Positions 8,866-9,190 of a DNA stretch of 64,000 nucleotides are shown in pieces; position 1 is the first letter of the stretch; the number at the start of each line of letters is the position of its first letter. The position numbers were made by a program, and so were the translations under genes. Under the pieces are notes generated by a model. The model was not told where the DNA came from and searched no databases. It was given only the letters and a program-made list of their open reading frames with translations. This DNA comes from Staphylococcus phage S-CoN_Ph3. The DNA is taken from sequence record OR354826.1. One strand, given 5' to 3'.

Positions 8866-8871
8866 TTTCCG

Positions 8872-9104
8872 TTGATACATATTAAAGACACTTACAGCAA
8901 TCCTGTTAATTCATATTTTACGCTAATTAAAAATGATTATGTGTCTTGTTTATTTTTATAAAAGTCTCTTACAGCAAACTTTATTAAACATTTTAAAAGA
9001 TATAATATTATGTTGAGACTTGATTGTATTTAAAAAGGACGTACAGCAAATTATTATTAAAAAACATGGGAACGTTTTTCAAATTGTCCTTTGATACATA
9101 TTAA
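8872..9104 (+). repeat. 218-bp unit bounded by perfect 15-bp direct repeats TTGATACATATTAAA (8872-8886 and 9090-9104), containing three tandem hairpins
   Basis: stems AAGACAC/GTGTCTT (8885-91/8941-47), AAGTCTC/GAGACTT (8962-68/9015-21), AAAGGAC/GTCCTTT (9034-40/9085-91); each loop begins with (T/G)TACAGCAA. Confidence 0.55.
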
Positions 9105-9190
9105 ATCTTTGTATGCTTATACAAGCATCTCTCTTTTTCTGACCTTAGAGGGGTGTTCGTATAAGTATATAAAGAAAGGTCAGATTAAAA

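Follow-up and report, generated by a model that had tools for sequence, protein, structure and literature searches.

Three probable tandem genes for putative Y-RNA-like RNAs beside a Ro60-like DUF2828 gene in a Staphylococcus phage

In Salmonella, rsr-yrlBA-rtcBA forms an RNA-repair operon. Systems of the Ro60-Y RNA and YrlA type (PMC4201824), among them Ro60-Yrl1/2 of the Thermus phage phiLo (PMC12135203), combine a ring protein with an RNA encoded on the same strand within a few hundred nucleotides of the protein gene; the RNA pairs its 5' and 3' ends as a terminal helix, and its second module is variable. The canonical Ro60-binding element of these RNAs is a bulged helix with CGAA, or GNCGAAN0-1G (PMC4201824, PMC12135203). 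The features of gene arrangement and RNA architecture recur at positions 8885-9093 (+ strand) of a 64,000-nucleotide stretch of Staphylococcus phage S-CoN_Ph3 (sequence record OR354826.1; this whole stretch is referred to as the window), where three tandem modules of about 60 nucleotides (nt) follow a gene for a Ro60-like protein of the DUF2828 family. We show herein that the modules belong to a family of structured, strand-specific elements linked to DUF2828 genes, and we think it likely that they are three tandem genes for ~60-nt non-coding RNAs, Y-RNA-like partners of the Ro60-like DUF2828 protein.

The array lies on the + strand and begins 20 nt past the stop codon of the gene at 7354-8865. 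Each module is 60-64 nt long and consists of a complementary 7-bp closing helix of its own, a 2-nt spacer, the heptamer ACAGCAA, a loop, and an unpaired G 3' of the stem. Module 1 (8885-8948) has the arms AAGACAC (8885-8891) and GTGTCTT (8941-8947), with TTACAGCAA at 8892-8900 and the unpaired G at 8948; module 2 (8962-9022) has AAGTCTC (8962-8968) and GAGACTT (9015-9021), with TTACAGCAA at 8969-8977 and G at 9022; and module 3 (9034-9093) has AAAGGAC (9034-9040) and GTCCTTT (9086-9092), with GTACAGCAA at 9041-9049 and G at 9093, all on the + strand. In RNA, the motif following the 5' arm therefore reads UU-ACAGCAA in modules 1 and 2 and GU-ACAGCAA in module 3. The loop of module 1 is A/U-rich, and that of module 3 is predicted to hold an inner hairpin, AAAAAC/GUUUUU. 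An initial annotation, made from the letters of the window alone, had described three modules with differing but complementary 7-bp stems and a shared loop motif, and these are present; its loop lengths of 44-49 nt cover the measured inter-arm distances (49, 46 and 45 nt in modules 1, 2 and 3), the lower bound being one nucleotide too short.

Over 7300-10000, the window has matches in Staphylococcus phage S-CoN_Ph13 and further Sextaecvirus phages of S. epidermidis. A comparison with nine related phages (87-99% DNA identity) shows unchanged stems, motif and spacers, and substitutions and indels in the loops; module 2 has a largely replaced and lengthened loop in S-CoN_Ph16 and BE22, with its stem and motif kept. 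The borders of the array are identical in all relatives examined.

Much more distant loci carry the same element. In a sample of 160 DUF2828 loci at 33-46% amino acid identity (80 from IMG/VR and 80 from bacterial or archaeal genomes, with the gene oriented +), ACAGCAA occurs in 658 copies on the gene strand versus 63 on the opposite strand, where a uniform distribution predicts about 59, and TACAGCAA occurs in 237 copies on the + strand versus 18 on the - strand. When the 7 nt lying 2 nt upstream of ACAGCAA were matched to a 3' partner, a perfect 7-bp closing stem was found for 405 of the 658 gene-strand copies (62%) versus 2 of the 63 copies on the other strand (3%). These stems comprise 127 distinct 5' arm sequences, and a G stands directly after the 3' arm in 92%. 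At single non-Watson-Crick stem positions, G-U types outnumber A-C types by 38 to 7, as expected for an RNA read off the + strand. With one motif mismatch allowed, 572 modules were counted in 148 of the 160 loci. The usual number is 2-5 in a locus, and arrays of 2-11 modules occur often. The modules cluster in the ~750 nt before the DUF2828 start codon and just past the stop codon, and almost none lie within the open reading frame (ORF). The structured RNA proposed in the initial annotation is supported by these counts, and so is the covariation of the stems in homologous loci, whose absence it had named among the signs against that proposal.

A covariance model (R1) was built from 35 short modules of unrelated metagenomic and bacterial loci, none of them from the window. 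Searched against both strands of the window (128 kb of search space), it returned as its sole significant matches the three modules, each at full length: module 1 at 8882-8951 (48.9 bits, expectation value (E) 1.1e-7), module 2 at 8959-9025 (45.8 bits, E 4.6e-7) and module 3 at 9031-9096 (37.9 bits, E 2e-5); the next best hit had an E of 0.58. A covariance model from homologous phages had been suggested as a check in the initial annotation. On 62 test loci (366 kb), R1 gave 92 matches at E up to 0.01 on the + strand versus 0 on the - strand. It also matches beside the DUF2828 homologues of Mycobacterium phage Itos, Shigella phage Tf, E. coli phage Bas63 (Tf and Bas63 being Felixounaviruses) and a Lysinibacillus SPbeta-like prophage. 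By these comparisons, the family is widespread in phages and bacteria, and the helix with its motif (hereafter the handle) is the part conserved across them.

None of the families in Rfam 15 reaches its gathering score on the modules, so that the family would be a new Rfam entry; the window gave only weak matches of microRNA (miRNA) type and matches to Dicty_Class_I at 22.4 bits, discussed below. Among 20 related loci searched at gathering thresholds only tRNA was found, and among 11 further loci searched at E up to 10 only tRNA and one partial YrlA match. Assignment of the window modules to a known Rfam family was rejected on these scores. No description of a DUF2828-linked stem-ACAGCAA RNA was found in the searchable literature, whose coverage is incomplete, and an earlier description elsewhere is possible.

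The gene at 7354-8865 (+) encodes a protein of 503 amino acids, annotated 'RNA-binding protein', with matches to Pfam DUF2828 and DUF7788 (E 1e-49 and 1.4e-27). Pfam TROVE (PF05731) was not detected in it; DUF2828 and DUF7788 are the only domains at E up to 0.01. An AlphaFold2 model based on 21 homologues (mean predicted local distance difference test score (pLDDT) 86.5, predicted template modelling score (pTM) 0.87) is all-helical over its N-terminal 280 residues and continues with an alpha/beta vWA domain, in keeping with the HEAT-repeat ring and C-terminal vWA domain of the Ro60 family. In a Foldseek search of the PDB, the top 11 matches of this model are all Ro60 proteins (among them those of Xenopus, human and Thermus phage phiLo), and isolated vWA domains come next. 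The best match is 1yvr (E 5e-8, template modelling (TM) score 0.58), and the Xenopus Ro60 structures 1yvr, 1yvp and 2i91 give TM scores of 0.57-0.60, at 11-16% sequence identity to the solved Ro60 proteins. The MIDAS motif (metal ion-dependent adhesion site) of the vWA domain, D294-x-S296-x-S298, is invariant in the 21 homologues. By its modelled fold, then, the protein is a Ro60-like ring of a TROVE and a vWA part, in agreement with the Ro60-like neighbour on which the initial annotation had made its partner reading conditional, and it is the presumed protein partner of the RNAs.

DUF2828 proteins are encoded in 700 of 50,697 deposited phage records, with Felixounavirus, mycobacteriophage clusters, and Listeria, Vibrio and Campylobacter phages among the carriers. 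Bacterial and metagenomic homologues number in the thousands and are annotated as 'RNA-binding' or 'Ro-like', without a known RNA. The domain has also been reported from plants and mimivirus-like sequences.

What the handle encloses varies. The family loops contain 502 hairpins with 7-nt loops versus 182 in shuffled sequences, and 204 hairpin loops of the form YU-NNN-RN versus 14. The enriched loops comprise T-loops, of the sequence UUCGAAU or a variant of it, and loops like those of anticodons (CUUUUAA, CUGAAAA, CUUGAAA, CUCAUAA and CUGUUAA), by which many relatives display the anticodons Lys UUU, Phe GAA, Ser UGA, Met CAU and Asn GUU. A tRNA-like domain with T arm and D arm is present in 110 of the 572 modules in DUF2828 loci. 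One example, at positions 3938-4052 of locus L020, is a whole permuted tRNA-Lys mimic between the handle arms, in the order handle 5' arm, UUCAGCAA, anticodon-arm mimic (CUUUUAA), T arm, acceptor helix closed by GUAA, D arm and handle 3' arm; its tRNA-like part matches positions 23-87 of Rfam YrlA at 43.8 bits (gathering score 69). The acceptor end of such permuted mimics is closed, and they could not be aminoacylated. No T-arm, D-arm or anticodon-like hairpin was found in the three window modules, which are the minimal form: a handle and an A/U-rich loop.

The inner hairpin loop UGCGGAU is common to modules of Mycobacterium phage Itos (L170, 3972-4022) and Shigella phage Tf (L171, 4880-4934), which suggests that cargo subtypes are conserved across very distant phages. 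In locus L031, two genes of normal tRNA topology (2009-2126 and 2135-2246) carry a closed handle hairpin with ACAGCAA at the anticodon-loop position in the Rfam tRNA alignment; in L034, inspected by eye, the handle apparently lies between the D and anticodon arms. Rfam tRNA matches of 110-140 nt with a 40-70-nt insert, consisting of a hairpin plus ACAGCAA near the anticodon arm, were also seen in L034, L037, L047, L055, L064 and L164. ARAGORN makes no call on these long handle-bearing genes, which may be tRNAs tagged with the DUF2828 handle.

The genomic setting differs between bacterial and viral loci. Of the 80 bacterial loci (L090-L169), 44 have an RtcB gene directly downstream of DUF2828, at about 4000 in locus coordinates, versus 3 of the 80 viral loci (47 of 160 overall). 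Upstream, WYL/WCX regulators are found in 35 of the 160 loci, and Band_7 (9 loci) and RlaP (8 loci) also recur. The bacterial DUF2828 loci mirror the rsr-yrlBA-rtcBA arrangement and look like RNA-repair operons with WYL regulators in the place of RtcR; no RtcB gene was found in the window. In phages, the DUF2828 gene and its modules lie in or beside tRNA clusters. The homologue in Bas63 is bas63_0130 (gp130; 94% DNA identity to Tf). In PhageMaP, g130 is described as Ro60-like and is reported to counter the Ppl defence, and the nearby 'tRNAs' were guessed to be possible Y RNAs (PMC11482910); Bas63 also has genes for an RNA ligase and for a polynucleotide kinase (PMC13148394).

The likeness to YrlA goes beyond gene order and terminal pairing, in that longer DUF2828-linked members contain a tRNA mimic in circular permutation, with T arm, closed acceptor hairpin and D arm, and bacterial loci are linked to RtcB. 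There are also clear differences. The window protein belongs to the DUF2828/DUF7788 branch, a paralogous Pfam family, rather than to Pfam TROVE, and the window handle is a plain 7-bp helix with single-stranded NU-ACAGCAA and a 3' G. Compared with YrlA, the window RNAs are about half as long and are devoid of a tRNA-like domain, the cargo in the DUF2828 family is often a true anticodon-stem-loop mimic, and arrays of several modules are formed. Neither Y_RNA (RF00019) nor YrlA (RF02553) matches the window, even at E 10. Because the CGAA motif is absent, the window RNAs are to be regarded as analogues of Y RNA and not as members of its family. The partnership suggested in the initial annotation is thus supported computationally, by the Ro60-like fold, the RtcB linkage and the YrlA-type permuted tRNA mimic, as an analogy in which the canonical binding element is absent.

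A mechanism can be sketched on these grounds. The RNAs would be transcribed with the DUF2828 gene or just after it and cut apart in the A/U-rich spacers. The ends of each RNA would then close into the 7-bp helix, leaving NU-ACAGCAA single-stranded on the 5' side and a G unpaired on the 3' side. By analogy with the terminal helix that Y RNA offers to Ro60, and in view of the genomic linkage, helix and motif may together form the binding site for the DUF2828 ring. The loop would be a variable cargo, short and A/U-rich in the Staphylococcus phage and an anticodon stem-loop or a whole tRNA mimic in relatives, and might serve as an adaptor or bait for tRNA-directed enzymes. The ribonucleoprotein (RNP) would in this case act on tRNA-directed processes, within RtcB RNA-repair operons in bacteria and within tRNA clusters in phages. 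If so, a large protein family of undefined function gains a candidate RNA partner, and the proposed recognition element (7-bp helix, NU-ACAGCAA and 3' G) is precise and mutable. Cargo loops and the RtcB/WYL context make tRNA damage, and its sensing, repair or decoying, the likely area of action, and the candidate RNAs could explain the anti-Ppl action of the Bas63 homologue.

Several observations weigh against this proposal. CGAA is absent throughout 8800-9200, and since neither it nor GNCGAAN0-1G is present, binding of the Ro60 type cannot be assumed from homology to Y RNA. In the folding prediction called for in the initial annotation, the closing stem of module 1 is part of the minimum free energy (MFE) fold, and folding energies of the window modules are weak on both strands and do not differ significantly from those of shuffled sequences (z -0.8 to -1.7), so that support for the modules is comparative rather than energetic. 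All seven pairs covary in the R1 seed alignment, a purely descriptive count that is not independent evidence because the seeds were selected for pairing. Inside the array, no promoter or terminator signals were found and no excess of sigma-70-like sites. The association was also tested in reverse, with a result partly in its favour: a search of IMG/VR with the pattern AAAGRCRCNTACAGCAA gave at least 128 matches. Among the 128 matches listed, 74 had the 3' arm followed by G, and for 28 of these 74 modules a DUF2828 gene was present in the fetched stretch, always on the same strand and at a median distance of 388 nt; a DUF2828 gene was near only 3 of the 54 listed matches that lacked the 3' arm. 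Where the fetched flanks reached at least 2 kb upstream and 2.5 kb downstream, it was near 15 of 29 listed modules, which leaves about half of the adequately flanked modules among the matches listed with no DUF2828 gene within a few kb. Given these fractions and the background of DUF2828 in phage records, linkage is strong yet not exclusive, and the RNA may also work away from the DUF2828 gene or without the protein. Some modules lie elsewhere on contigs that do carry sampled loci (L200 and L235, for example, are on the contigs of L013 and L082).

These last figures bear most directly on the strongest alternative, which we hold to be unlikely: that the modules are structured RNAs working without being bound by DUF2828, as tRNA or anticodon-loop decoys, as tRNA-derived regulators, or as processing or stability elements of the operon transcript, in which case co-location would stem from common regulation or from a common pathway, for instance tRNA repair. 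It would account for the modules without a nearby DUF2828 gene, for the many modules inside tRNA gene clusters, and for the tRNA-like genes of ordinary topology that bear the handle as an internal extra hairpin. However, the conserved part of the family is the handle and not the tRNA-like cargo, and nothing tRNA-like is present in the window modules. A helix whose sequence is free, flanked by a nearly invariant single-stranded heptamer, is what a protein recognition site typically looks like, and orientation and distance relative to the DUF2828 gene are very tightly constrained. Moreover, the loci without DUF2828 share no other protein family: by ORF clustering, the best candidate was a 146-amino acid ORF in 8 of 44 such loci.

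Phage-encoded tRNAs and tRNA-like decoys act against tRNA-targeting defences, as in the cases of T4 Pnk/Rnl versus PrrC and of a T5 tRNA versus PARIS. The DUF2828-linked modules resemble them in their position in phage tRNA clusters, in the anticodon loops of many relatives and in the anti-defence action of the Bas63 protein (PMC11482910). They differ in that the window modules contain no anticodon-like hairpin and in that the conserved element is the non-tRNA handle.

That the modules are decayed, functionless tRNA genes or fragments, retained because DUF2828 genes lie in tRNA clusters, seems very improbable. Such an origin would fit the T-arm, D-arm and anticodon-arm mimics of some family members, and ARAGORN finds a tRNA-Pro(UGG) gene, its only call in the window, at 11184-11257, 2 kb downstream of the array. 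Pseudogenes, however, would not retain a covarying stem foreign to tRNA, ACAGCAA and a 3' G across phages of Firmicutes, Actinobacteria and Proteobacteria. Among the Sextaecvirus relatives, stems and motif are invariant and the loops diverge; purifying selection on the handle is visible.

The repeats might instead act as DNA, whether as iterons or other protein sites, as a recombination or homing target, as a miniature mobile element, or as a CRISPR-like mini-array, a view to which we attach hardly any probability. A repeat search detects three copies of a 22-nt direct repeat 72-77 bp apart, a perfect 15-bp repeat flanks the array, and a homing endonuclease gene is inserted right beside it. 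Neither the strict strand bias relative to the gene (658 versus 63 motif copies; 92 versus 0 model matches) nor the G-U excess over A-C mismatches is accommodated by a function in DNA, and iterons or a CRISPR-like array were rejected on both counts; cas, transposase or integrase genes are absent from the vicinity, and the array borders do not vary among relatives.

The flanking repeat calls for a closer look, because the initial annotation had taken it to delimit a unit. The 15-bp sequence TTGATACATATTAAA is present in exactly two copies in the window, at 8872-8886 (+), where it forms the spacer leading into module 1, and at 9091-9105 (+), one position downstream of where the second copy had been placed (9090-9104). 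Next to the latter lies a homing-endonuclease cassette (9103-9760, +), composed of a long, imperfect hairpin with 29-nt arms (9106-9175) and, following it, an HNH ORF with NUMOD4 and HNH_3 domains (9191-9757). This cassette lies between the array and an exonuclease gene; among 19 related phages, 7 carry it and 12 lack it. In the HNH-less relatives, similarity to the window stops near 9102, at a clean junction after ...TTGATACATATT, and ...GTCCTTTGATACATATT leads directly into the ribosome-binding site of the exonuclease gene. The first 12 nt of the second repeat copy are kept in these relatives and are therefore native; the remainder starts the cassette flank. Since the 12 relatives without HNH keep the array, the array is native and the cassette was inserted later beside it; the cassette stands outside the RNA system. 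A mobile unit between direct repeats was ruled out by the same relatives. The 15-bp repeat is a recurring 3' flank or spacer after a stem ending in ..TTG, and not the border of an inserted unit.

The other stem of this kind is a hairpin across the stop codon of the DUF2828 gene, CAACGGA-TTAATT-TCCGTTG (8855-8874, +), an inverted repeat that is the same in 9 relatives and is part of the centroid fold. Its 3' strand and flank (TCCGTTGATACATATTAAA) are repeated in the 3' end of module 3 and its flank, and TCC(G/T)TTGATACATATT stands 3' of both the stop-codon hairpin and module 3. The hairpin is a possible 3' end or processing structure of the mRNA; read on the minus strand, it is the sole terminator-like site near the array.

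A chance arrangement or degenerate tandem duplication in AT-rich intergenic DNA, as the 30% G+C of the window and the weak folding z-scores might suggest, can be counted as already refuted, because an independent model finds the three sites, and no others, at E 1e-7 to 2e-5 in the 128 kb searched, and because the family recurs in 148 of 160 loci.

A further resemblance is to the Class I RNAs of Dictyostelium (RF01414; PMC7919456), which are 42-65 nt long, have a paired terminal stem of 6-7 bp with variable sequence and a conserved single-stranded motif following the 5' arm, are otherwise variable and A/U-rich, and are often encoded in clusters. The Rfam consensus of the Class I motif is CCUUACAGCAAU; in modules 1 and 2, the equivalent register reads CUUACAGCAA(U/A), and the 3' end is an unpaired ..UG. 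Agreement with the 11-nt motif (consensus CCUUACAGCAA) extends, in register, to 10 of 11 positions in modules 1 and 2; module 3 carries a G at the U3 position, which is nearly invariant in Dictyostelia. Near-invariant positions common to both families include the two C's of ACAGCAA. RF01414 is the only Rfam family other than miRNA families to match the modules, and it does so at 22.4 bits on each of modules 1 and 2, with module 3 unreported, against a gathering score of 41.5; the Class I model gives chance matches of 25-40 bits in large eukaryotic genomes (Kjellin et al., Additional file 7).

There are also differences from Class I RNAs. The Dictyostelium RNAs have a Dictyostelium upstream sequence element (DUSE) promoter ~60 nt upstream, an invariant initial G and a CUGU end (PMC7919456); DUSE is a eukaryotic promoter element, and the window belongs to a Staphylococcus phage. 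Class I RNAs have been reported as limited to Dictyostelia, and the only direct binder shown for them is Rnp1A/CIBP, a protein with an RNA recognition motif (RRM). The resemblance, seen at the level of sequence and layout, should be taken as a lead and not as a finding. Rather speculatively, and with probability against it, stem-ACAGCAA RNAs and DUF2828 might constitute a second Ro/Y-like RNP system, older and wider than phages and bacteria, with the Dictyostelium Class I RNAs as eukaryotic members. On such a reading, the missing core partner of Class I RNAs would be a DUF2828 protein, possibly the pull-down protein DDB_G0281243, and the handle would serve universally as a tag by which a Ro-like ring is loaded with a variable bait, such as an anticodon loop or a whole tRNA mimic. 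If the resemblance were homology, it would provide a concrete hypothesis on the role of Class I RNAs, a question open since 2004. In the preprint of Kjellin et al., the best out-group Class I candidate is Arabidopsis ath_can_1 (covariance model score 40; GUUUUC-AUU-ACAGCAA...GAAAAC-UG), which the authors dismissed. This candidate may be worth another look; the papers returned by DUF2828 searches concern plant species.

A few observations on the phage records themselves may be added. In S-CoN_Ph17 (L003, OR354840.1), the DUF2828 gene is split into two coding sequences, the array has many small indels, and ACAGCAA is lost from modules 2 and 3; this looks like a low-accuracy assembly rather than true decay. 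In the record of S-CoN_Ph13 (L001, OR354836.1), the genes for the small terminase subunit and the 'RNA-binding protein' are annotated again upstream in inverted orientation (1-1260 versus 5450-7566). Segment 4001-9800 of the window shows no self-similarity like this inverted duplication; the inverted copy may be an assembly artefact, or the window may represent a sibling genome. Finally, at 12013-12735 of the window, the large terminase gene is apparently interrupted by an ORF for a NUMOD3 homing endonuclease, which is annotated in pieces in the public record.

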